Assembly: GCA_016744065.1 (NCBI GenBank)
Contig: JADGFA010000021.1
Span: forward strand, 4,174-68,173
DNA length: 64,000 bases
Origin: Gammaproteobacteria bacterium
GTDB lineage: Bacteria > Pseudomonadota > Gammaproteobacteria > SZUA-229
Direction: 5' to 3'
Under the pieces are notes generated by a model. It saw nothing but the letters and a program-made list of their open reading frames with translations. It was not told the DNA's origin and did not search any database. Of this stretch, positions 51,955 to 64,000 are shown piece by piece (within the stretch, counting starts at the first letter, position 1; the number at the start of each line of letters is the position of its first letter). A program made the position numbers and the translations under genes.

Positions 51955-52043
51955 CTAGGTGTACGGGAAAGCGGGTGTACTCCACTTGGACACTTAACGC
52001 CTTTTAAATATAACGTTTTAATAACCTAGTATTTGTTAGTATA

Positions 52044-52484
52044 TTAATTTATGTAAGACTCTGGACATTTGGCTTCTTTGCTAAAGTTATTTATACTTTC
52101 TATAAACACAACATGAATTTGATCAATTAGCCAATGTCCATTGTTTTCTCTATATTTTAGGCTGAAAATTAATGGCACTTTTTCTTTATCATAGCCATTA
52201 ATCGTTAGACAACCATTTTTATGGTTTATTTTTTCATAGTGTTTATCTACAGAATTCATATGATTTTTAAATAGTAACTGACTGGACGCATCAGGGTTTG
52301 TAACGTAATCATCACCTAAGAATGATTGGGTAAAGTATACTTTAGCAACATCTTTAATGTTATTTTCATTGGCTGATTCGCTATATAATATATATGATTT
52401 AAATAGTGTATATGGTGACTTGTTAGTAGTAGTACAACTTACAAGAAACAGAATAGAAAAAAAACTTAACATTATGCTGTTCAT
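52044..52484 (-). CDS. hypothetical lipoprotein (146 aa)
   Basis: Lipobox FLVSC after a signal peptide. Starts 2 nt after the upstream gene. The ENNGHWLIDQIHVVF tail suggests an NTF2-like fold. Confidence 0.55.
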   Translation of the reverse strand: MNSIMLSFFSILFLVSCTTTNKSPYTLFKSYILYSESANENNIKDVAKVYFTQSFLGDDYVTNPDASSQLLFKNHMNSVDKHYEKINHKNGCLTINGYDKEKVPLIFSLKYRENNGHWLIDQIHVVFIESINNFSKEAKCPESYIN

Positions 52485-52486
52485 TT

Positions 52487-52915
52487 TTAATGCCCCGTGA
52501 TTTTTTGTAATTCCAAATCATAAACATGATGCCTGTCTTTAAGCGCGCGTGCTGCTCTACATAAAAGCCCAGAACATGATATTATTAGCTCTTCCAGGTC
52601 AAAATCCCCCATTACGGTTAATTTCATATATACCAAATCAAAAGTAGCTCTATATCCTATATTCATGCCCCCTTTATTATTAAAAGAGACGCTAACTCGT
52701 TTTATTTTAGCACCAATTCTATCTAGAACTGGTGACCCAGTGAATGTGACAGTTCCTGCCGTTCCTGTAAGTGTGGCTTCACCATTTTGATCTATGGTAA
52801 GTTTTGTGCCTGCTTTATTTGCCATGATTTTTACTGTCATTCCTTTATCCTTTGAATAAGCCAACTCCAAAAACTTTGCAATTGTTATCTTCGCTTCTGT
52901 TCTTGTTAGATCCAT
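52487..52915 (-). CDS. hypothetical cytoplasmic protein (142 aa)
   Basis: ORF with a GGGGAAATC RBS region and no signal peptide. No recognisable family. Confidence 0.5.
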   Translation of the reverse strand: MDLTRTEAKITIAKFLELAYSKDKGMTVKIMANKAGTKLTIDQNGEATLTGTAGTVTFTGSPVLDRIGAKIKRVSVSFNNKGGMNIGYRATFDLVYMKLTVMGDFDLEELIISCSGLLCRAARALKDRHHVYDLELQKITGH

Positions 52916-52949
52916 GATTTCCCCCTGTTTTCTTATTGAATTGCTAACA

Positions 52950-52981
52950 GCTGATAACAGGAACTATTTCCTGTTATCAGC
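52950..52981. promoter_or_regulatory. perfect 14-bp-stem inverted repeat upstream of the 52915 gene
   Basis: GCTGATAACAGGAA - CTAT - TTCCTGTTATCAGC, 35 nt upstream of the start codon. No flanking U-run on either strand, so it is not a typical terminator. Confidence 0.5.
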
Positions 52982-53139
52982 CCTTAAATATTTACCAAAA
53001 ATAACTGCAATTCTTTAAAAATCAACATATTAGTGTTTTTCTGTTCTGTTATTGGGGCTTAAGAGAATAACATATATTGTATTTGTAAAAATATCAACAA
53101 CTTACTAAAGGGGTAAGCCTTAAGAATTGACGAGGTGAA

Positions 53140-53342
53140 CTTTTTATAGAAAATTAGATGGCTCTCGTATGGGAAGCGAAGATACTCAGACAAGATGTCA
53201 TCAATGCTGTGTCTAATATCTGGATTATCGGATAATAACTGTATGTAATCTTTAAGTGCACCAAAGTAATGTTCAGCTTGTTTTGTTCTCAGGTTATCTA
53301 TTGAGTACGAAAGAGTTTTTCAACATCCCTGGCAGCTTCATC
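53140..53342 (-). pseudogene. decayed RelE/ParE-family toxin gene
   Basis: The minus strand reads DEAARDVEKLFR / (frameshift) YSIDNLRTKQAEHYFGALKDYIQLLSDNPDIRHSIDDILSEYLRFPYESHLIFYKK. This is collinear with ParE (A..DL..I..Y....G..QA..Y...L......L...P..G.......YR.F.V.SH.IFY). There is no start codon, a stop upstream and at least one frameshift near 53300. Confidence 0.45.
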
Positions 53343-53463
53343 CGTTTATGTAGGTATTGCATGGCCATATTATGCTTTCCATCCATGGATATTTTATGGT
53401 GCTGAACATAAACAGTATGAAAACTCGAACAGATCGCGTCTTATTAAATTATCTTTATATCTA

Positions 53464-54534
53464 TTAAATATGACACAGGGAAATAGCTTCATCAGCACTT
53501 TCCAGAGCGCCTTCAAGATACCCGCCGTGTTGCTGTGCGACTTCGGTACCCGCCAGTATTAATTGATTATTCCAGAAATGTCTGGGTATATCCGCTGGAT
53601 ACTGGGGATGTTGTATGGGGGAGTTTAAGTCAGTTTCAGTTGTTGTGTTTTCATCCAGGCTCCAGTCTTTTATCTGAACATCCCTGATGTTCTGGCTCTC
53701 ATCACCAAACAGGCGTTGTAGTTGTGCCATACATGACGTTATTAATTGTTCATTGTTTATCTGTTTACGTTGATGTGCATTTAAACCAACGAAAGAGGTA
53801 AGGGCATAAAGCTTTTCATCTTCGGGGGAGCCATCATAAATTTCAGATAATGGTCCGTAATGGCTGAATACTTCACCTGAGAGGTTCTGTTCTCGCCAGA
53901 AAGGTTTGTCATAAATGAATAGAATTTTACAGTGCCCTGACATCCAGGTGGGTATGCTTTTCCAGGTGTTGTTTATCTCTTCTGGAAGCGCAGGGTTAAA
54001 GGTTATATTTTGTTGAATAAGTCTTGGGGGTAATGCAAAAATAATTTTATTTGCGCTATACCGAACAACTTTACCATTTTGTAAGGTGACAATACTTAAA
54101 TCATCTTTATGGATTTTCTGTACAAGTGTATTCAGGTGAATAGATGATTCAGGTAATTTATTCTGTAACGCATTAACCAGGCTCTGGCTGCCACCTTCAA
54201 TTCGATATGATTCACTGTGTGATGACTGACTGTTATATCGTTCAGTCTCATCAGGGTTCTTTTCATATAACATATCACCGGATGTAAATTGTTTAAATAC
54301 ATTTAAATTAAGCTGGCTCATTAACTGATTTAAACGAGGCTGTAACTGAGGCCATACCCAGGCTGGCCCCATATCAAAATGACTCTTATTATATTCGGGT
54401 GATAATATTCGCCCACCGATTCGATCACGTGCTTCCAGTAAAATAACATCCTGGTTTTTCTGTTGTAACTGCCAGGCACAATATAAACCGCTTAAACCCG
54501 CACCTATGATGATAATGTTATGTTGTTCACTCAT
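53464..54534 (-). CDS. FAD-dependent amine-oxidase-family oxidoreductase
   Basis: IIIIGAGLSGLYCAW...LLEARDRIGGR dinucleotide fold and the C-terminal GTEVAQQHGGYLEGALESA motif. Overlaps the upstream gene by 4 nt. Confidence 0.8.
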   Translation of the reverse strand: MSEQHNIIIIGAGLSGLYCAWQLQQKNQDVILLEARDRIGGRILSPEYNKSHFDMGPAWVWPQLQPRLNQLMSQLNLNVFKQFTSGDMLYEKNPDETERYNSQSSHSESYRIEGGSQSLVNALQNKLPESSIHLNTLVQKIHKDDLSIVTLQNGKVVRYSANKIIFALPPRLIQQNITFNPALPEEINNTWKSIPTWMSGHCKILFIYDKPFWREQNLSGEVFSHYGPLSEIYDGSPEDEKLYALTSFVGLNAHQRKQINNEQLITSCMAQLQRLFGDESQNIRDVQIKDWSLDENTTTETDLNSPIQHPQYPADIPRHFWNNQLILAGTEVAQQHGGYLEGALESADEAISLCHI

Positions 54535-55262
54535 TTTGCAGATTCATCTGACATAGGTTTATTTGGCGTGGGCTCATCTGATATGTGCTCATATGAAACA
54601 GGTTCCAGCAGGTGGCCTGTTTTACGTAAAATCAGGCAGTTTTTATTAACTGTAATATTCTGTTTTGAACCCGCTGGTAAACGTAACCAACTGCCGTTAG
54701 AGTAGTTGCCGGTATCATCACTAAAGCTTCCATCGATAACAAAGTATTCAACACCGGCTTCAAAAATAAGGTCAGTAAACTTCATGCCTGCCGTCCAGTG
54801 CATCATGCAGACCGACTCATAATCCGCTTCAAACAGGTGTAATATTTCTCCGAAAGTTTTATCTTTATTCCAGAGGTTTTTATCGTGGGTATTAATCGCT
54901 ATTTGCTTTTGATCATCCGGGTGCATCTGCCATAGTTTAACTAAAATAGTACAGCCTTTATCACTATGGGGTGCATGCCCTGTACCGGTCGGGTTGCGAA
55001 CATAATAACCTTCAGGGTAATCTGCGTGTTGATCTGAGAATATGCCCTGCAACACAAGAAACTCTTCACCGCCATCATGTACGTGACCACTGAATGCGCT
55101 TTGTGGGGCAAAGCGCACCACAGTAGTTACACGTTCAACAGGCGGGTTATCATCATCTGCTTCTAACCTGAGGCGTTGTACACCTGCTGATGGTGAATTC
55201 TCCCATTCAAGACTGTTAATATTGAGGTTTGCCCTTAGTGATAAATCAGCATTGAGTTTCAT
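54531..55262 (-). CDS. ChrR-type cupin domain protein (two cupin repeats, no anti-sigma ZAS domain)
   Basis: GHVHDGGEEFLVLQGIFSDQHADYPEGYYVRNPTGTGHAPHSDKGC matches the ChrR C-terminal cupin pattern. No H-x3-C-x2-C motif is present. Confidence 0.7.
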   Translation of the reverse strand: MKLNADLSLRANLNINSLEWENSPSAGVQRLRLEADDDNPPVERVTTVVRFAPQSAFSGHVHDGGEEFLVLQGIFSDQHADYPEGYYVRNPTGTGHAPHSDKGCTILVKLWQMHPDDQKQIAINTHDKNLWNKDKTFGEILHLFEADYESVCMMHWTAGMKFTDLIFEAGVEYFVIDGSFSDDTGNYSNGSWLRLPAGSKQNITVNKNCLILRKTGHLLEPVSYEHISDEPTPNKPMSDESAK

Positions 55263-55291
55263 ATGGTTTCTAAATTTATAATTTATGGGTT

Positions 55292-56302
55292 TTATAGTTT
55301 GTAAGTTACACCAAATGTAAATGCAACATCAGGGCTATTTTCAAAATTAACAATATTTTCTACTAAACCGGCCTCAAAAAGATACGATTCGGTTCTCCAT
55401 TTATACCCAATATGTATTTCATGGCTGTATTCAGATAGCTCACCTATATCAACAACAACGCCTTCGCTGAATAAATACTGCAATATAAAAGCTTCATCAC
55501 CTTCCATATTAAATTCATAACCTAACATGCCACTAAACTGGTGATCGGTCAGGGGCATGCCTAGAACGTCCTTTGAGCCAAACTCGGTATATGACAGATT
55601 AGCGTATGCGTAACCATTGTTTTTTTTCTGGGCAACACTGAACTGCACGCCATAATCAAAAGCACCATGTTCAATCAGGCCGTCGTGTAACATTTCATAA
55701 CTTATATTAAAGTTCATTGCGATTGCTGGCCAGCCAATACTTTTATCAGCCAGAACTTTCTGCACGCTGATGCCCACAGTTTGTGAGGTCTGACCGCGAG
55801 CTTCTTTACCTAGATTAATCCCGTATTCAGAAATCTGTATATGCGTACCATCTTTAACTGCTTCATCACGGCCATTCTGGTCGATATCAAACAGGTCATG
55901 AAACTCCAGGGTTAACTGATCAAGGTGTGCATTGACTATGCGCCGTTCATTAATGGAAAACTCTGCGGACCAGTTATTAGCAAACCCTCGGTTAATCGCA
56001 AAGCGCGTATCGGTAAAGTGATAATCCAGTACAAACAAATTTTCCTGGCTGCTATAAACACTTGCTGCGGCAATATTAAACTGTAACTCTGTCTGGCCTT
56101 CAGGCAGTCCGTAAGGTGAGCGGGGAACAGGTGAAAGGCGTAGTGACTGAGCTGGTGATAATGAACGAATAGTTAAAGGTCCTAAAGTGCCATTCCAGTA
56201 TTCTTCAGGTTCAGGCTCATATGCATAAGCTCTGTCCTGTGTAATTGCGATGAATATGAATAAAATAAAAAATCTGAAATAAAGCACTGTGAAAACTTTC
56301 AT
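55292..56302 (-). CDS. outer-membrane beta-barrel protein, DUF3187-like
   Basis: Signal peptide, alternating amphipathic strands throughout, and the terminal FTFGVTYKL. Family assignment is from memory of DUF3187 features only. Confidence 0.55.
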   Translation of the reverse strand: MKVFTVLYFRFFILFIFIAITQDRAYAYEPEPEEYWNGTLGPLTIRSLSPAQSLRLSPVPRSPYGLPEGQTELQFNIAAASVYSSQENLFVLDYHFTDTRFAINRGFANNWSAEFSINERRIVNAHLDQLTLEFHDLFDIDQNGRDEAVKDGTHIQISEYGINLGKEARGQTSQTVGISVQKVLADKSIGWPAIAMNFNISYEMLHDGLIEHGAFDYGVQFSVAQKKNNGYAYANLSYTEFGSKDVLGMPLTDHQFSGMLGYEFNMEGDEAFILQYLFSEGVVVDIGELSEYSHEIHIGYKWRTESYLFEAGLVENIVNFENSPDVAFTFGVTYKL

Positions 56303-56364
56303 ATTTAATCCTGAAATCAGTTTATTTAAGCAATAACTATTTGTTTAAAATGTTGATTTTAGAA

Positions 56365-56382
56365 TTGCAGGCTATATGCCAG
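56365..56382 (-). promoter_or_regulatory. sigma54 (-24/-12) promoter P1
   Basis: The minus strand reads CTGGCATATAGCCTGCAA against the consensus YTGGCACGrNNNTTGCW. GG and GC are separated by 10 nt. It lies ~60 nt upstream of the 56302 start. Confidence 0.8.
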
Positions 56383-56397
56383 GTTTGTGTATTTTTG

Positions 56398-56410
56398 TAA
56401 CCGATTGATT
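56398..56410 (-). promoter_or_regulatory. IHF-like site between UAS and P1
   Basis: The minus strand reads AATCAATCGGTTA, matching WATCAANNNNTTR. The offset from the -24 GG is the same as for the site at 60018-60030. Confidence 0.5.
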
Positions 56411-56448
56411 ATTAAGCTAATAGTTTGTATTTTTTATAGATTTGTTTG

Positions 56449-56501
56449 AACGAAATATCGTAACTAACGAATAGTCGTTGATTTTATAACGTTATTACGT
56501 T
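56449..56501. promoter_or_regulatory. upstream activator sequences: three AACGN-N4-NCGTT palindromes
   Basis: AACGAAATATCGTA (56449-56462), AACGAATAGTCGTT (56466-56479) and AACGTTATTACGTT (56488-56501). Their centres lie 76, 93 and 115 nt from the -24 GG of P1. Confidence 0.7.
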
Positions 56502-56543
56502 ATAAAATTATAATGAAATTTACGAAATAATGGATATTACGTC

Positions 56544-58433
56544 ATGAGTGAGATGAAATCGCCTGAGCCATGTATTAGTAGCTTTACCTCGGTTAGTGCA
56601 ATGGGTGAGCTAATACTGGAAGCCGTAGGTGAAGGTATATTTGGTATCGACTGTAACGGCATAACGATCTTTGCTAATCCCGCCGCAGCGCGCATGACAG
56701 GATGGAGTGTTGAGGAATTAACCGGGCAAAAAAGTCATGCCATGTTGCACCATACAAAAATAGATGGCTCTGTTTATCATGCTAATGATTGTCCTGTTCA
56801 TGCATCATTTAAAGATGGAGATGTTCATCATGTAGATGATGAAATATTCTGGCGTAAAGATGGTAGTCATTTCCTGGTTGAATATACAAGCACACCGGTT
56901 AAAAAAGAGGGTCAATTATTAGGTGCAGTGGTGGTCTTTAATGATATAACCGAACGTAAGTGTGAGCAGGAAAAAATTAGAAAAATTTATAATGAAAATC
57001 AGCTTATTTTGCACTCAGCAGGTGAGGGTGTTTACGGCCTGTGCTGTGAAGGTAAAACCACTTTTGTAAATCCTGCCGCTGCCGCGATGCTAGGTTATGA
57101 GGTTGAAGAACTAAAAGGTCAGCCTATGCACAGTCTTTTACATCACACCCATGCCGATGGATCTGATTACCCAAATATAGAGTGTCCTATTTATGCTGCA
57201 TTTAAAGATGGGTCAGTTCATCATGTGGATGATGAAGTGTTCTGGCGTAAAGATGGCAGTAGTTTTCCAGTTGAATACACCAGTACGCCTATAAAACAGG
57301 ATGGTAAACTGTTAGGTGCTGTGGTGGTATTTAATGATGTAACAAAGCGTAAGCAGGCCGAAGAAGAGTTACAGAAAGCTTACGCAGAAGTAGAAAAAAT
57401 GAAGCAGCGGCTGGAAGCTGAAAATACTTACTTACAGGAAGAAATTAGAACTAAGCATAATTTTAAGGAAATTGTTGGTCAGAGTTGTCCAATTAAACAG
57501 GTGTTAAATCAGATTGAGCTGGTTGCGCCTACCATGGCCAATGTATTAATTATTGGTGAGTCTGGCACAGGTAAAGAACTTATCGCCCGTGCAATTCATG
57601 ATAGAAGTGAACGCAGTGATCGACCTTTAATAAGGGTTAACTGCGCAGCAATACCCAATGAGCTGTTTGAGAGTGAATTTTTTGGTCATATGCGTGGTTC
57701 ATTTACCGGTGCTATTAAAAACAGAACAGGCCGATTTGAGCTGGCAGATGGGGGTACCATATTTCTTGATGAAGTAGGTGAAATACCCATTGATTTACAA
57801 AGTAAATTACTACGGGTTTTGCAGGAAGGTCAGTTTGAGCGAGTAGGGGATGAAGCGACACGAACAGTTGATGTGCGTATTATTGCCGCGACGAATCGTG
57901 ACCTGAGAAAAGAAGTTGAAAAGGGAAATTTCAGAGAGGATTTATATTTTCGATTAAATGTTTTTCCAGTGGAAGCGGTGCCATTAAGAGACAGGCTGGA
58001 TGATATACCACTTTTGGCAGAGCATTTTATTACAATCATATGTAAGCGTATTAATAGAGAAATTCCAAAGCTAACCAATGCCAATGTTAAGCAGCTTCAG
58101 ACTTATGCCTGGGGGGGGAATATACGTGAGTTACAGAATGTAATTGAACGGGCGATTATTGTAGGCAAGGGAAACAGACTTATATTTAATTTACCAAAAA
58201 ATAAAAATGAACATATAGACGCTGTGCAGGAAAGTGTTAATTCAACAGATTCTGATTTACCCTATAATGAAATAGAACGGTTAGCGCGTGATAAAATAAA
58301 TATCATAGCGGCATTGACCTATACCAGGGGAAAAATATCTGGTGCGGAAGGTGCAGCGGAGTTACTGGGGATTAAACCTACAACACTCGCTTCAAGAATG
58401 AAATCACTGGGAATTGATAAAAAAGACATATAG
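56544..58433 (+). CDS. sigma54-dependent transcriptional activator, PAS-PAS-AAA+-HTH
   Basis: Two tandem PAS domains, Walker [15 protein letters not shown]-type loop [12 protein letters not shown], Walker [19 protein letters not shown], and the Fis-type [24 protein letters not shown]. Confidence 0.92.
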
Positions 58434-58472
58434 TTTATTTTACAAATAATTGTTTATTAATGTGGCTAAATT

Positions 58473-59084
58473 TTACAGTGATTTAAATTTATTTTTAATA
58501 ATTACATCCTCTAGTGGTAGCTGTCCAGGTCTGGGCCATGCAGGTTTAATTTCTTTACCAATGGCCAGGCACATGGTTATTACATGGTCTTCAGGAAGAT
58601 GTATGACTTTAGCTACCTTATTATAATCAAATCCATCCATAGGGCATGAATCATACCCCATGGACCTGGCGCTTAACATTAAGGTCTGTGCAGCAATACC
58701 ACAGGAGCGCATGGCTTCATCACGTTGTACCTGATGCCTGTTTCGATAATAATTATCCATTGCAGATAACATTATTTCCCTTAACGCTTTAGATGCATTT
58801 CTCCAGTACCGTTGAGTTCCTTTTTCCCAGGATTTTAAATCAGCGCAAAGTACAATGAATAATGAGGCATCCGTTACCTGTGCCTGATCCCATGCATGTG
58901 ATCTGATTTTGTTTCTTATTTCAATATCTTCTATTATTACAAAGCGCCAGTTCTGTTGATTGAAAGCAGTGGGTGATAAAATAGCTAATGAGAGTAACTT
59001 GTTTATTTCCATTTCACTGAAGCTATATAGTGGGTCAAAATGTTTAATTGATCGACGCGTGATAATGGCTTCTTCGGTATTCAT
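58473..59084 (-). CDS. FMN-dependent nitroreductase family protein
   Basis: ITRRSIKHF start motif, PTAFNQQNWRFVII, and ~200 aa length. Confidence 0.85.
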   Translation of the reverse strand: MNTEEAIITRRSIKHFDPLYSFSEMEINKLLSLAILSPTAFNQQNWRFVIIEDIEIRNKIRSHAWDQAQVTDASLFIVLCADLKSWEKGTQRYWRNASKALREIMLSAMDNYYRNRHQVQRDEAMRSCGIAAQTLMLSARSMGYDSCPMDGFDYNKVAKVIHLPEDHVITMCLAIGKEIKPAWPRPGQLPLEDVIIKNKFKSL

Positions 59085-59117
59085 TGGGGTTCCTGTTTGC
59101 TTATGTTAATAGTATTA

Positions 59118-59627
59118 TTAAATTAATTTTTTTGGATAAGTTTTTTTAGATAAAAAATTAATAAAAATAAGTGCAATAATAACCAGAGCGATTGAACCGA
59201 TAAAACTGGGCATCAGTAAAAAAGGCCAGTTTGCATTAGCTAAAAATACGATAATTGGATTTGAGCCCGCAGGTGGGTGAACGGTATCTGTCATAATCAT
59301 TAGACCGAGAGCAACCGATAAAGCTAACGCCATGCTCCACCATTGTGGACCAACAAAATGTAAAAATGCCAAACCGATAAAGGTCGATAATAAATGACCT
59401 GCTATGACATTTTTGGGTTGTGAAAATGGGCTTTCAGGATAGCCAAATAATAATACACATGAAGCTCCAAATGAGCCCATGATAAGTGGGTAACCCGTAT
59501 AGTTAGCGAGAAAAGAAATAATGGCAATAGCACTAAATCCACCGAGTGAAGCAAAGAGCGCCTTGTTCATAAGTGAGTTATTATTAAATAGCTTAAAGTC
59601 GGTGTTTTTCTGTTGAAAAAAATTCAT
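59118..59627 (-). CDS. HPP-family integral membrane protein
   Basis: 169 aa with four to five TM helices and the family signature VHPPAGSNP. Confidence 0.85.
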   Translation of the reverse strand: MNFFQQKNTDFKLFNNNSLMNKALFASLGGFSAIAIISFLANYTGYPLIMGSFGASCVLLFGYPESPFSQPKNVIAGHLLSTFIGLAFLHFVGPQWWSMALALSVALGLMIMTDTVHPPAGSNPIIVFLANANWPFLLMPSFIGSIALVIIALIFINFLSKKTYPKKLI

Positions 59628-59779
59628 ATTAGCTCCGAAATATGTCGTGATTCTGTTTGAGGTTATATAAAGACCAGTATTTTAAATTTTTAAGTGTTGG
59701 TCTTTAAAATATTAATCCCTGGTGATTTGTTTTTAATGATAAATTTGTATTTACCGGATTTTAGCTTCATCATTAGTGT

Positions 59780-59917
59780 TTAAGGGCTGGAGAAATGCCC
59801 AGTCAGGAGTGTCGTTGTTATACCGTTAATGCTTTTCGGTGGGGCGGAAAATGTTAGAGCGGGTATTAGAAATGTAATACCGACGATAAGATTTGAAATA
59901 AGTTTTTTAAGTGTCAT
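59780..59917 (-). CDS. possible small exported peptide (45 aa)
   Basis: AAGGAAAAATC precedes the ATG. The product is MTLKKLISNLIVGITFLIPALTFSA/PPKSINGITTTLLTGHFSSP. It is the first ORF downstream of sigma54 promoter P2 and is too short to be in the ORF track. Confidence 0.35.
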   Translation of the reverse strand: MTLKKLISNLIVGITFLIPALTFSAPPKSINGITTTLLTGHFSSP

Positions 59918-59984
59918 GATTTTTCCTTATCTGGTTAGTTTTTAATAACGACCTGGTTGTTAACTGTCTGGTTCGTTAAGAATG

Positions 59985-60002
59985 GAGCACCAGCCATGCC
60001 AG
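59985..60002 (-). promoter_or_regulatory. sigma54 (-24/-12) promoter P2
   Basis: The minus strand reads CTGGCATGGCTGGTGCTC, with GG-N10-GC spacing and TGGCA / TGCT elements. It faces the small ORF, HPP and nitroreductase genes. Confidence 0.75.
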
Positions 60003-60017
60003 AAATTGTTTTTACTT

Positions 60018-60030
60018 TAACCGCATGATA
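60018..60030 (-). promoter_or_regulatory. IHF-like site between UAS and P2
   Basis: The minus strand reads TATCATGCGGTTA, one mismatch from WATCAANNNNTTR. It starts 18 nt from the -24 GG, exactly as at P1. Confidence 0.4.
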
Positions 60031-60068
60031 TTTAAGGTAATAAATTATATTTCACATGGCTGGAGTAA

Positions 60069-60120
60069 TACGATAATTCGGGTATAACGAATAGTCGGGT
60101 GTATTCAACGATATATCGTT
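60069..60120. promoter_or_regulatory. upstream activator sequences: three AACGN-N4-NCGTT-type palindromes
   Basis: TACGATAATTCGGG (60069-60082), AACGAATAGTCGGG (60086-60099) and AACGATATATCGTT (60107-60120). Their centres lie 76, 93 and 114 nt from the -24 GG of P2. Confidence 0.7.
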
Positions 60121-60199
60121 AAAATAAAACTTGTGAAATAGTGTTAGTTTCATTGGGTGGGTGTATTAATATGAAGTTTATTATTTAGAAGGAATATGA

Positions 60200-60925
60200 A
60201 TGATTACTCTTTATCAGTTTCCTATTTCACATTTTTGTGAAAAGGCTCGTTGGGCACTCGATTATAAAAAAATTACTTATGAAACTAAAAACCTGTTGCC
60301 TGGACCGCATGTAAAGCAGGTGATGTCTATGGCAAAAAGACCAGAAGTACCTGTGCTAAAACATGAAAAAAATATTATTCAAAATTCGAATGAAATTATT
60401 GATTATCTGGATAAAACATTTGCAGATAATGCGTTAACGCCAGAAGATGAAGAGAGTCGAATTAAGGTATTGGAGTGGGAGGCTTTTGTTGATAAAGAAG
60501 TAGGGCCAAACTTACGCACATATTTTTATCATACTTTGTTGGAGCATCCGAAATTGTTAATACCTATTTTTACTTATAAAGGGCCCTGGTATGGAAAAAT
60601 TTTTATGAAGTTTTTTTTCCCTGCTTTGCGAGTGAAAATGCTTAAGTTTATGCGGATTAATAATGAAACTGCTGCTCAGGCGAAACAGGATCTCAGGTGT
60701 GCGATAGATAAGCTTAATCATCGCCTTTCAGAACATGAGTTTCTGGTGGGAGAGCACTTTACTCGAGCTGATCTGGCGGCAGCATCTTTATTGGCACCTT
60801 TAGTGCAGCCAGAAAAATATGGTTTACCCTGGCCGTCACCTTTGCCCCTGCCTTTGCAGCAGACAATTGATGAATGGCAGGATGATCTGGTATGGGTTCG
60901 GCAATTATATGATAAGTACAGGTAA
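60200..60925 (+). CDS. glutathione S-transferase family protein
   Basis: N-terminal thioredoxin-like domain (ITLYQFPISHFCEKARWALDYKKITYE ... VPVLKHE) and a helical C-terminal domain. 241 aa. Confidence 0.8.
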   Translation: MITLYQFPISHFCEKARWALDYKKITYETKNLLPGPHVKQVMSMAKRPEVPVLKHEKNIIQNSNEIIDYLDKTFADNALTPEDEESRIKVLEWEAFVDKEVGPNLRTYFYHTLLEHPKLLIPIFTYKGPWYGKIFMKFFFPALRVKMLKFMRINNETAAQAKQDLRCAIDKLNHRLSEHEFLVGEHFTRADLAAASLLAPLVQPEKYGLPWPSPLPLPLQQTIDEWQDDLVWVRQLYDKYR

Positions 60926-60981: not shown

Positions 60982-61854
60982 TTATTTTAATGGTAAATAA
61001 ATATCTGTTTTTAACTCATGTTCCTGAACATCGGTAATGAGTGTCAGATAATGAAAAAAGCAGGGGTAGTCACGTAGTTCCTCACCACTCTCCGGTAGCC
61101 ATTCAGCATACATTCGGCAAACGCTTTCACCCACATTATCAAGGCTGCCGTTATGGCGTAATACGGCACAACGGCCACCTTGAATTTCAGCTGATTTTAT
61201 ACCCTGTGAATTCTCTGCAACGTCATCTTTAATTGAGCCACAAATGTCAAAGCGGAATTCTTCTGGTGCTGTGGTTTCCGGGTTGTCATAAACAATGCCA
61301 TAGGATTGGCTAGTTGCCACAGGGGACTGTTTGCTTTGTTTACGCCACTCAATAAATTTACTAACGGATTCATAAACACGATCTGGTGGCCCTCTGTGTT
61401 CCAGCAGTGCAACTTTAGTTTGTTTGAAATTAACGATTTTAATATCCATAACCTGGCATGCCTCATTTTTAGGTAGTGTAAACTGAACCCGGGTGTGCCA
61501 TTCTGGCCACCTGGGCTCGGCTCTAAATTGAGAGGGCGTTTGCTCAAAAGCATGTTTAAATGCACGGGAAAAAGATTCCGGATTTTCAAACTGAGCTTCT
61601 AATGCAATATCGATAACACGGCTTTCTTTATCAAAAGCCAGGCGATAGGATGCACGCTTTAATCGCATTAACTGAACAAACCGCGTAACACTAATGCCGG
61701 TATAGTCAGAAAATTGTCGATGAAAGTGAAATTTTGAAAAATGCGCAATTTGACACAACAAATCTAATGGCATTTCTTCATCCAGGTGTTGATAAATATA
61801 ATCACACACCCGGTGAATTCGCGCTGCATAGGTGCTGGTCTTAGTTCCGCTCAA
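60982..61854 (-). CDS. AraC-family regulator with a GyrI-like effector-binding domain
   Basis: N-terminal double HTH (FSKFHFHRQFSDYTGISVTRFVQLMRLKRASYRL; FENPESFSRAFKHAFEQTPSQFR) and a C-terminal ~150-aa GyrI-like / SOUL-type domain. Confidence 0.85.
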   Translation of the reverse strand: MSGTKTSTYAARIHRVCDYIYQHLDEEMPLDLLCQIAHFSKFHFHRQFSDYTGISVTRFVQLMRLKRASYRLAFDKESRVIDIALEAQFENPESFSRAFKHAFEQTPSQFRAEPRWPEWHTRVQFTLPKNEACQVMDIKIVNFKQTKVALLEHRGPPDRVYESVSKFIEWRKQSKQSPVATSQSYGIVYDNPETTAPEEFRFDICGSIKDDVAENSQGIKSAEIQGGRCAVLRHNGSLDNVGESVCRMYAEWLPESGEELRDYPCFFHYLTLITDVQEHELKTDIYLPLK

Positions 61855-62462: not shown

Positions 62463-63305
62463 ATGTCAGAAATTATATTTTTAAATATGGCCGATGATTT
62501 ACACGTTGACGGACATAAAGCCGTTGAAGCCTTAAAAATAAAACACCCAGATCAGTTTAGTAAGTATCGAAAGAAGCGTAAAAAACAGATTGTTGAGATT
62601 GAAATGGTCCCTTTCTTTCGTGCCTGGAAAGCGGGAACGGGTAATGTGGCTGATCTGGTTAAAATTCGAAAGCAGATAACTGAAGCTAAAACGGTAATGC
62701 TCTCTATTCATGGCCCAATGAATTCGGTTAATTATGGTCTTATTCGTGATCCGCAGGGCGGTGGGGGGGAACAGGTTAGTTATCAACTGTTGGGGAGGTT
62801 AATAAGAGCACTGTTTTCTGCTGGACACTGCCATAACTTTACACTGGTGACCTGTTTTGCTGCCAGAAGTGAAAATTATGCTGCCAATCATAACCTGTTA
62901 GCTAATATAGACTGGACTAATAGCTTTGCATATAAATTATTTAATGAGATAACGCCACAGCGTGAAGTACGTATGACGGCTCGTATTGGAGAACTCAGTT
63001 TTAGTACGACGTCCGGAGAGTCTGAAGTTCAAAGCGAGTTATCTATACAGGGGACTATTGATAATGCTGCGTTGCTGGCTGAGGCTGGCGTTGCGGAAAG
63101 CCAGGTCTGGTGGGAAAAAAATGTTTCTCGGTTAATGACGGGGGATACGCATCAACAGTTTGTCATTGATATGACCATAGCTAAGAATCAAGGTGCAGCC
63201 GGATTAGTGGCACTATGTAGTGGTCTAATAGCACCGGACACTTTAATAAGAGATAATACTAATCAATTATTAAGGTGCCAGAATGAGTCAGAAACGGACA
63301 TATAA
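62463..63305 (+). CDS. hypothetical protein, 3' end apparently replaced by IS3 sequence
   Basis: 280-aa ORF. Roughly the last 30 codons (from ~63216) lie inside the probable left end of the downstream IS. The native part carries TVMLSIHGP ... NFTLVTCFAARS (a His-Gly / Cys pair 48 residues apart). Confidence 0.55.
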   Translation: MSEIIFLNMADDLHVDGHKAVEALKIKHPDQFSKYRKKRKKQIVEIEMVPFFRAWKAGTGNVADLVKIRKQITEAKTVMLSIHGPMNSVNYGLIRDPQGGGGEQVSYQLLGRLIRALFSAGHCHNFTLVTCFAARSENYAANHNLLANIDWTNSFAYKLFNEITPQREVRMTARIGELSFSTTSGESEVQSELSIQGTIDNAALLAEAGVAESQVWWEKNVSRLMTGDTHQQFVIDMTIAKNQGAAGLVALCSGLIAPDTLIRDNTNQLLRCQNESETDI

Positions 63306-63573
63306 ACAGTATTCTAAAGAATATAAAGAAGAAGCGGTAGCGCTCGTTAAAGAACAGGGTTATTCGGTGCCGGAGGCAGCGAAATCACTGGGCATAGCTA
63401 GCAATATGTTATATCGTTGGAAAGAACACATTGAATCTCAGCTCGATGGCAAATCATTATCGGTTGATGAACGTGAAGAATTGAAGCGGCTGCGCAAAGA
63501 AAATAAAAACCTACGGATGGAGAAAGAGATTTTAAAAAAGGCCAGCGCCTTCTTCGCGAAAGAAATGAAGTAA
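63283..63573 (+). CDS. IS3-family transposase OrfA
   Basis: 96 aa. YSKEYKEEAVALV...AAKSLGIASNMLYRWK HTH and a leucine-zipper tail ending EILKKASAFFAKE. Confidence 0.9.
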   Translation: MSQKRTYKQYSKEYKEEAVALVKEQGYSVPEAAKSLGIASNMLYRWKEHIESQLDGKSLSVDEREELKRLRKENKNLRMEKEILKKASAFFAKEMK

Positions 63574-64000
63574 AGTTTGTTTTTATTAGAGATGAGTCTA
63601 GGCATTATCCGATTGTCGTTTTATGTCGGATCATGCAAATCGGTACGTCAGCCTATTATGACTGGAATAAGCGACCAGGCAAGCTGATTAGTGGCGATGT
63701 ATTGCATCTCTATCGACGATTGAAGGCCTTATTTAAACGCAGCCGAGATAGTTTGGGTTCTCGCGAGATGATGAAAAAGTTACGCGAAGAAGGTTTTAAA
63801 ATTGGACGCTACAAAGTTCGCAGCTTGATGGCGAAGTTGAACTTGATCGTTCGTCAACGTGTTGCGTACAAAGTGACGACGAAAAGAAATCATCGTAATG
63901 CAGTGGCACTTAATTTGCTAAATCAAAACTTTAATCCGGTTGCACCGAATCAAGTTTGGGCCGGTGATATTACTTACTTAAAAACAGGTGAAGGCTGGAT
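63567..64000 (+). CDS. IS3-family transposase OrfB, N-terminal part (truncated by the window end)
   Basis: The -1 frame reads ...YPIVVLCRIMQIGTSAYYDWNKRPG...SRDSLGSREMMKKLREEGFKIGRYKVRSLM...PNQVWAGDITYLKTGEGW, a typical IS3 OrfB. The slippery AAAAAAG is at 63534-63540. Confidence 0.85.

Follow-up and report, generated by a model that had tools for sequence, protein, structure and literature searches.

Among the described systems closest to the locus analyzed here is that of CynF from Pseudomonas pseudoalcaligenes CECT5344, which is likewise sigma-54-dependent and whose gene and target operon are divergent. Expression of cynABDS requires CynF, as shown genetically, and is induced by cyanate (PMC6627978). 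In the norR-norVW system of Escherichia coli, none of the three GT-N7-AC dyads is dispensable, as they jointly stabilize the active oligomer of NorR (PMC2831303). For PexR of Myxococcus xanthus, three tandem CACCG-N6-CGGTG repeats lie upstream of sigma-54 promoters, and the same repeats overlap an embedded sigma-A (housekeeping-sigma) promoter that PexR represses (PMC12754779).

Here, we analyzed two control regions within a window of 64 kb, by which we mean the whole stretch of DNA under study. The gene of an enhancer-binding protein of 629 amino acids (56544-58433, plus strand) sits between the two control regions and is divergent from region 1. Operon 1 (53464-56302, minus strand), placed under the region 1 promoter, contains genes for a DUF3187 outer-membrane-type protein (55292-56302), a ChrR-like cupin (54531-55262), and a flavin amine oxidase (53464-54534), all on the minus strand. 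Operon 2 (58473-59917, minus strand), placed under the region 2 promoter, starts with a pseudogene of a 125-amino-acid secreted protein (homology at 59723-59917), followed by the genes of an HPP-family membrane protein (59118-59627) and a nitroreductase (58473-59084), again all on the minus strand. We estimate a probability of roughly 0.8 that this activator controls one small regulon through regions 1 and 2, acting as enhancer-dependent sigma-54 promoters. The layout shared by both regions almost certainly serves the activator gene lying between them.

In region 1, the sigma-54 promoter TGGCATATAGCCTGC (56367-56381, minus strand) carries the -24 GG and the -12 GC. Upstream of it, the IHF-like site AATCAATCGGTTA (56398-56410, minus strand) perfectly matches WATCAANNNNTTR. 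Three dyads, to which no strand is assigned, follow as enhancer sites: the proximal site 1, AACGAAATATCGTA (56449-56462), centered 75.5 nt from the GG; the middle site 2, AACGAATAGTCGTT (56466-56479), 17 bp from site 1; and the distal site 3, AACGTTATTACGTT (56488-56501), 22 bp from site 2. Region 2 is built in the same manner. Its sigma-54 promoter TGGCATGGCTGGTGC (59987-60001, minus strand) is invariant in relatives, and its IHF-like site TATCATGCGGTTA (60018-60030, minus strand), with one mismatch to WATCAANNNNTTR, occupies the same -30 position as in region 1. The dyads of region 2, likewise without strand, are site 1, TACGATAATTCGGG (60069-60082), and site 2, AACGAATAGTCGGG (60086-60099), in each of which one half is degenerate with CGG for CGT, and site 3, AACGATATATCGTT (60107-60120), which is perfect and lies 21 bp from site 2. 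Both promoters conform to TGGCA-N7-TGC; they read TGGCATATAGCCTGCA and TGGCATGGCTGGTGCT, and their GG and GC elements are 10 bp apart, fitting TGGCAC-N5-TTGCW.

All elements that the initial annotation had described were found at their positions in both regions. The dyad centers, given there as 76/93/115 nt for region 1 and 76/93/114 nt for region 2, measured 75.5/92.5/114.5 and 75.5/92.5/113.5 nt, counted upstream from the first G of the -24 GG. For the IHF-like site, there placed at +18 from the GG, the end is indeed 18 nt and the start 30 nt from the first G in both regions, and the sequence said to be shared by the middle dyads, TAACGAATAGTCG, is common to both without exception. The description of the dyads as AACGN-N4-NCGTT palindromes held only in part: there are three dyads per region, but only three of the six are perfect AACG-N6-CGTT palindromes and four of the six are perfect for ACG-N6-CGT. 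Identity of the two regions outside the elements is 47% compared with the 34% expected from composition, so that calling the sequence between the sites loosely similar was a fair description.

The activator consists of two PAS domains, an AAA+ sigma-54 interaction domain, and an FhlA-like C-terminal HTH. The AAA+ domain was matched by Pfam PF00158 (E = 1.6e-72) and the two PAS domains were also matched; the HTH scored 21.6 bits with HTH_8, just under the 22-bit cut-off, and the C-terminal region aligns residue by residue with the DNA-binding end of FhlA. Walker A is intact and the loop reads GSFTGA, with G385, F387, T388, G389, and A390 invariant in 36 homologues. Further invariant residues are C83 in the first PAS domain and H196, H200, H201, and C214 in the second, a cluster that suggests a metal or cofactor site. 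A search of solved structures with the PAS-PAS region returned generic PAS domains only (best match 5xgb, E = 2.8e-9), and thus gave no clue to the ligand. NCBIfam held no equivalog for the activator, every match being far under its cut-off. Thousands of homologues, as a lower bound set by a limit of 8000 scored candidates, were found; the best 120 of them are 58-100% identical to the activator and are mostly metagenomic. A megablast of 55200-60300 for plasmids gave no match. The system was not described in the literature searched for DUF3187, or for a PAS-type sigma-54 activator together with nitroreductase, old yellow enzyme, or AhpD.

The closest characterized DNA-binding end is that of E. 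coli FhlA, which is 49% identical over the AAA+ domain and HTH and contains the stretch KRTTLLSRMKRLGIDK. Unlike the window activator, FhlA is a formate sensor with two GAF domains. When the hycA-hypA intergenic region, a target of FhlA, was read directly, repeats of the TCGACA/TGTCGA type were seen and no ACG-N6-CGT triplet; the literature on the FhlA consensus yielded no usable motif.

The comparison with NorR showed a similar overall plan, as NorR is also encoded divergently, acts through three dyads, and belongs to the AAA+/HTH class (PMC2831303). Moreover, norVW has IHF between the enhancer and the sigma-54 promoter, where the window has its IHF-like site. However, the NorR dyad is GT-N7-AC, with centers 21 and 24 bp apart as derived from the quoted 66-bp oligonucleotide, whereas that of the window is ACGA-N4-TCGT. 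The sensor of NorR is an iron-containing GAF domain, in contrast to the tandem PAS domains of the window activator, and NorR targets NO-detoxifying enzymes. Assignment to NorR was thus not retained: the window has the NorR-like layout of three sites plus IHF, but neither the GT-N7-AC dyad nor the GAF domain. The three tandem repeats of PexR share the CG-N6-CG core with the window dyads, and its embedded promoter parallels a putative embedded promoter of the window activator gene. In contrast, PexR has a GAF (Zn/Fe) sensor, another half-site, and ahpC and katB as targets, and no IHF is mentioned for it (PMC12754779). Membership in the PexR group was rejected on account of the GAF sensor and the different half-site. 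The window architecture is real and widely conserved, yet it is ordinary in kind: a sigma-54 promoter is combined with an IHF-like site and an upstream activating sequence of three sites, as for NorR and PexR.

The CynF system shares features of both gene arrangement and DNA with the window. Halomonas/Vreelandella relatives of the window activator, which are 53-59% identical to it, adjoin an NrtA/CynA-type ABC transporter, and a cyanase gene comes after this transporter in two loci (L016 and L020). The layout of the Halomonas/Vreelandella loci is that of cynFABDS in P. pseudoalcaligenes. The CynF-dependent PcynA promoter (PMC6627978, Figure S1) has the same three sites as the window enhancer, namely the ACG-N6-CGT dyads ACGATATCTCGT, ACGAAATCTCGT, and ACGAGATTTCGT, separated by 23 bp and 17 bp in this order; this sequence was machine-read from the figure with small disagreements between strands, such that the third site has N6 or N7 depending on the strand. 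As in the window, an IHF-like sequence, TTTCAATCGCTTA, lies between the dyads and the promoter, and the proximal dyad center is ~63.5 nt from the GG compared to 76 in the window. A term search of the main text of PMC6627978 found no mention of palindromes, nor did the literature searched beyond it yield a description of these sites. As judged from the Halomonas/Vreelandella loci and from PcynA, the activator family would include CynF. In contrast to CynF, the window regulon has no cyn genes downstream of either promoter; genes for DUF3187, cupin, amine oxidase, HPP, and nitroreductase are found there instead.

Next, we considered the state of region 2. Since two of its three sites are imperfect and the first gene of operon 2 is a pseudogene, region 2 may be weak or inactive. 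A further-reaching alternative is that region 2 is a decaying relic, which inherited the promoter design but lost the activator-dependent function in this genome. The halves carrying CGG for CGT in sites 1 and 2 are in line with such decay, as the counterparts of L081 are perfect at these sites and that of L082 at site 1. The pseudogene points in the same direction: its reading frame is closed by an in-frame stop following codon 45 and its C-terminal half is deleted, while the intact order of the 125-amino-acid protein, HPP, and nitroreductase genes is present in L081, L082, L083, and L086. Also, a palindrome located at the start site in relatives is stretched here from N8 to N23. However, the -24/-12 elements and every spacing are intact, the distal site is perfect, and the IHF-like site is at its exact position. 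The HPP and nitroreductase frames are likewise intact and, at 169 and 203 amino acids, have the full length seen in relatives. Furthermore, natural regions with one or two imperfect dyads occur elsewhere, for example in L082 and L086. We therefore regard complete loss of function in region 2 as unlikely, although it keeps more weight than any other alternative considered below, and we retain region 2 as a second, weakened promoter of the regulon.

The conservation of region 1 pointed to an additional element. A putative sigma-70-type promoter of the activator gene (56478-56506, plus strand) was placed by conservation, with TTGATT at 56478-56483 and TATAAA at 56501-56506 separated by 17 bp, and dyad site 3 of region 1 falls in its spacer. 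In all eight divergent region-1-type regions, the CAACG flank of site 2 (TTG on the plus strand) and the ATAACG flank of site 3 (TAT) are invariant, whereas these flanks were not invariant in the five aligned region-2-type regions. The TTG-17 bp-TAT flanks would accordingly represent the activator's own sigma-70-type promoter. A consensus sigma-70 scan did not call TTGATT/TATAAA, and sigma-70 and terminator scans of both intergenic regions and of 52000-53600 gave nothing exceeding the shuffled background, so that it is conservation that argues for this promoter. Such an embedded promoter predicts negative autoregulation of the activator gene, and it would explain why the spacing between sites 2 and 3 is 22 bp in the divergent regions and 21 bp elsewhere.

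Comparison with relatives showed which parts of the two regions are kept. Seven contigs with activators 70-90% identical to that of the window retain synteny. When eight region-1-type and five region-2-type orthologous regions were aligned, essentially only the ACG/CGT cores of the dyads, the TCA..TTA core of the IHF-like site, and the -24/-12 elements were invariant. The spacing is similarly constrained over a wider range: in 32 control regions from Gammaproteobacteria, Verrucomicrobia, and Planctomycetes, the first two dyads are 17 (rarely 18) bp apart and the next step is 20-24 bp, being 21-23 bp in all but one region, which has 20 bp. The proximal dyad of these 32 regions is 69.5-80.5 nt from the GG, the informative core of the pooled dyads is ACGA-N4-TCGT, and the IHF-like site is exactly at -30 in most gammaproteobacterial relatives. 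The gene order of operon 1 is found behind a matching promoter in L081, L082, L084, and L085, and in the same four loci a third or alternative promoter of this design precedes a DsrE-like gene beside the same activator. In L087, such a promoter, likewise beside the activator, precedes a gene for an N-ethylmaleimide-reductase-type flavoenzyme. Distant lineages have the same design before genes for alpha/beta-hydrolase, AhpD-like CMD, thioredoxin, PNPOx-like, and NrtA/CynA-type ABC transporter proteins.

A metagenome scan was then made with the triplet of dyads alone as the pattern, the promoter not being included, and it returned 80 loci. In 60 of the 80, a TGGYA-N7-TGY sequence lay no more than 140 nt away on the side expected from the 17/22 asymmetry, compared with ~0.7 expected by chance in a rough estimate that assumes uniform base frequencies. 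On the mirror side of the same 80 loci, no promoter was present at a comparable distance. A homologue of the activator was encoded within ~1.3 kb of the triplet in 59 of the 80 loci, and the remainder were mostly contigs of 1-2 kb. The promoter distances in the scan cluster near 55, 65, and 76 nt; the 55-nt class accompanies a one-PAS sister group, whose IHF-like sequence TAAGTnATTGTTTT is in the opposite orientation.

The triplet was also related to the predicted recognition helix of the activator. Among loci found through the protein, a KPTTLxSR-type helix tracks the triplet (counts 24/9/2/41; Fisher p = 2e-10, a value that ignores shared ancestry), the triplet not being found in the surrounding DNA covered for nine loci with this helix. 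The closest relatives in the genome collection (L001-L003) had no triplet in the DNA covered, and a sister group with a KPSTLxYR helix shows another upstream pattern; therefore, the design is not universal in the wider family. As judged from the sequences, the elements and their geometry are conserved and are linked exclusively to sigma-54 promoters and to this activator family.

These observations bear on whether the dyads are operators of another protein, such as a repressor encoded elsewhere, with the activator working from solution or elsewhere on the DNA. Many regulator families indeed typically have dyads of such a size. Nevertheless, the triplet travels with the activator family across phyla, tracks its recognition helix, and was always placed at fixed distances from a sigma-54 promoter, on its enhancer side, with the homologue beside the triplet in most of the scanned loci. 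In addition, the orthologue alignments contained no other conserved candidate for enhancer dyads, and no second regulator gene is conserved in the syntenic loci. We consider it very improbable that another protein owns these sites; the activator encoded between the two regions is the preferred candidate for binding them.

The frequency of the elements was analyzed in the 64-kb window. Taken singly, none of them was enriched: ACG-N6-CGT occurred 8 times against 4.3 expected, the IHF pattern WATCAANNNNTTR 8 times against 6.6, and TGGCA-N7-TGC 6 times against 2.9. Equal density of the motif throughout this AT-rich DNA, which the initial annotation had named as a refutation of its reading, was not seen within the window: the perfect AACG-N6-CGTT was present 3 times in 64 kb and all three copies were inside regions 1 and 2. 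For this purpose, a triplet was a set of three dyads spaced by 16-18 and 20-24 bp, in which no dyad had more than one core mismatch and the whole set no more than two. Among 300 sequences simulated from the window by a first-order Markov model, only 2 contained such a triplet (mean 0.0067 per 64 kb), compared with two observed, both of which are equally distant from a sigma-54 promoter. It is the arrangement, rather than any single motif, that is improbable by chance. Thus, even though the single motifs are not enriched and identity between the elements is somewhat over that of composition, the notion that regions 1 and 2 resemble each other by chance or by a recent local duplication without selected function is ruled out by the simulation (~0.007 triplets expected, two present), by the orthologue alignments, in which the elements and not the spacers are kept next to activators only 70-90% identical and also in other phyla, and by the metagenome scan. 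The initial annotation had proposed that functional elements are conserved in both regions for a common activator, and this proposal is supported, on the level of sequence, by comparative footprinting, geometry, the metagenome scan, and motif density.

On this basis, we propose how the activator would operate the two promoters. Binding of three dimers, templating of a hexamer, use of IHF, and autoregulation are proposed here by analogy with NorR, PexR, and CynF. The FhlA-like HTH of the activator would recognize the dyad ACGA-N4-TCGT, so that three activator dimers may occupy the dyads, which, counted from the start site, lie at about -100, -117, and -139, positions that fall within the 80-150 bp upstream range of upstream activating sequences. 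An IHF-type bend at about -54 to -42 would bring these dimers to the closed complex of the sigma-54 holoenzyme. When triggered, the tandem PAS sensor may free the AAA+ domains, whereupon the three dimers would assemble into a hexamer that contacts sigma-54 via its loop, and ATP hydrolysis by the hexamer would open the promoter. In region 1, the dyads overlap the putative sigma-70-type promoter of the activator gene, and the activator is probably self-repressing; in region 2, the same design would operate in a form weakened in this genome. From the regulated genes and from the cyanate-responsive relative CynF, we speculate that the signal might be a small nitrogen-containing, redox-active, or electrophilic compound. 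One point against this mechanism is that the 17-bp step turns dimers 1 and 2 to different faces of the helix, an orientation not accounted for in a planar hexamer.

A wider reading, less probable than not and offered here tentatively, is that sigma-54 activators of several phyla share one rigid enhancer design, which in this genome wires a response that has gone unrecognized. On the protein side, such activators would combine an FhlA-like helix with one PAS domain or two, in which His/Cys clusters are invariant, and on the DNA side, they would use three ACGA-N4-TCGT dyads at a step of 17 bp followed by one of 21-23 bp. Promoter distances of about 55, 65, and 76 nt appear to differ by whole helical turns, although this apparent stepping is not independent evidence because the distance classes follow lineages. 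One branch of this family would then be the genetically studied system of CynF and cyanate. The same half-sites, which relatives carry at another spacing over the operon 2 start site, would reflect a second, repressive binding mode. The response genes of the present genome would be those of DUF3187, the ChrR-like cupin, the amine oxidase, the HPP nitrite-channel-like protein, and the nitroreductase, and the response would concern a small nitrogen-containing, redox-active, or electrophilic compound.

These results provide a predicted recognition motif and an enhancer layout for a large and mostly unannotated group of PAS-type sigma-54 activators that would include CynF. Since a search with nothing but the triplet led to the right promoters at 60 of the 80 metagenome loci, the triplet is usable to predict the regulons of this family in genomes and metagenomes. 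The enhancers also form a second natural series of the three-site type beside those of NorR and PexR, with a fixed 17/22-bp geometry and stepped promoter distances, and this series would help to study how a hexamer is templated by three dimers on DNA. In the genome analyzed here, the DUF3187 protein, the ChrR-like cupin, the HPP protein, and the nitroreductase are tied into one predicted regulon.

The operon downstream of region 2, one of the two collinear minus-strand sigma-54 promoters, begins with a pseudogene (59723-59917, minus strand) of a conserved 125-aa secreted protein that has no Pfam family. An in-frame stop follows codon 45, and the C-terminal half is gone. Divergent from region 2 is a glutathione S-transferase gene (60200-60925, plus strand), which lies just 80 bp from site 3, the distal dyad of the enhancer, and is kept in synteny in two relatives (L081 and L082). 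Because of this synteny, we consider that the glutathione S-transferase gene may be co-regulated, or repressed, from the region-2 sites. Farther along are a putative AraC/GyrI-like regulator (60982-61854, minus strand), labeled by eye from its sequence, and orfA of an IS3-family transposase (63283-63573, plus strand). An extra TGGCACTTAATTTGC match was found near this orfA at 63904-63918 on the plus strand, with no dyads upstream of it.

A third promoter of the region-1/2 design was observed in four of the syntenic relatives, where it precedes a DsrE-like gene (approximately 2340-2460 in L081, 2337-2455 in L082, 1343-1462 in L084, and 1347-1466 in L085), and a DmmA-like/ferredoxin-reductase gene comes next. 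The corresponding place in the window (52044-52915) holds two unrelated reading frames that gave no Pfam match.

In the region-2-type promoters of L081, L082, L083, and L086, a fourth palindrome covers the expected transcription start. Its half-sites are those of the enhancer dyads with a longer spacer, AACG-N8-CGTT (N11 in one locus). Its counterpart in the window (59947-59977) has a stretched spacer, AACG-N23-CGTT, with an AACCAG repeat inside. This palindrome could represent a second binding mode, an operator, or a 5' hairpin.

Among the metagenome triplet-scan hits (L088-L167), enhancer-promoter distances were grouped near 55, 65, and 76 nt, steps of approximately one helical turn, and each class went with a lineage and a target type. 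Promoters of the 55-nt class are followed by a ~90-aa secreted protein. Those of the 65-nt class (L145, L146, L149, and L155) are followed by a gene of 457-470 aa, which matches the CynA-type binding protein in size. Furthermore, five Verrucomicrobia loci (L043, L046, L049, L051, and L052) share a common CCAATGATTCGATGGTTTC where Gammaproteobacteria carry the IHF-like site, and it is perhaps the site for a different bending protein.

The activator (gene at 56544-58433) has a conserved HH…C-P…H pattern in both PAS domains (residues 65-90 and 196-226), and C83, H196, H200, H201, and C214 were invariant across 36 homologues, which suggests from sequence that these His and Cys residues form a metal or cofactor site. 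No solved structure with this PAS pattern was found. Finally, L104, L147, and L156 each carry a sigma-54-like promoter pointing at the activator gene, 10.5-11.5 nt past the distal dyad, hinting that some members of the activator family are themselves transcribed by sigma-54.
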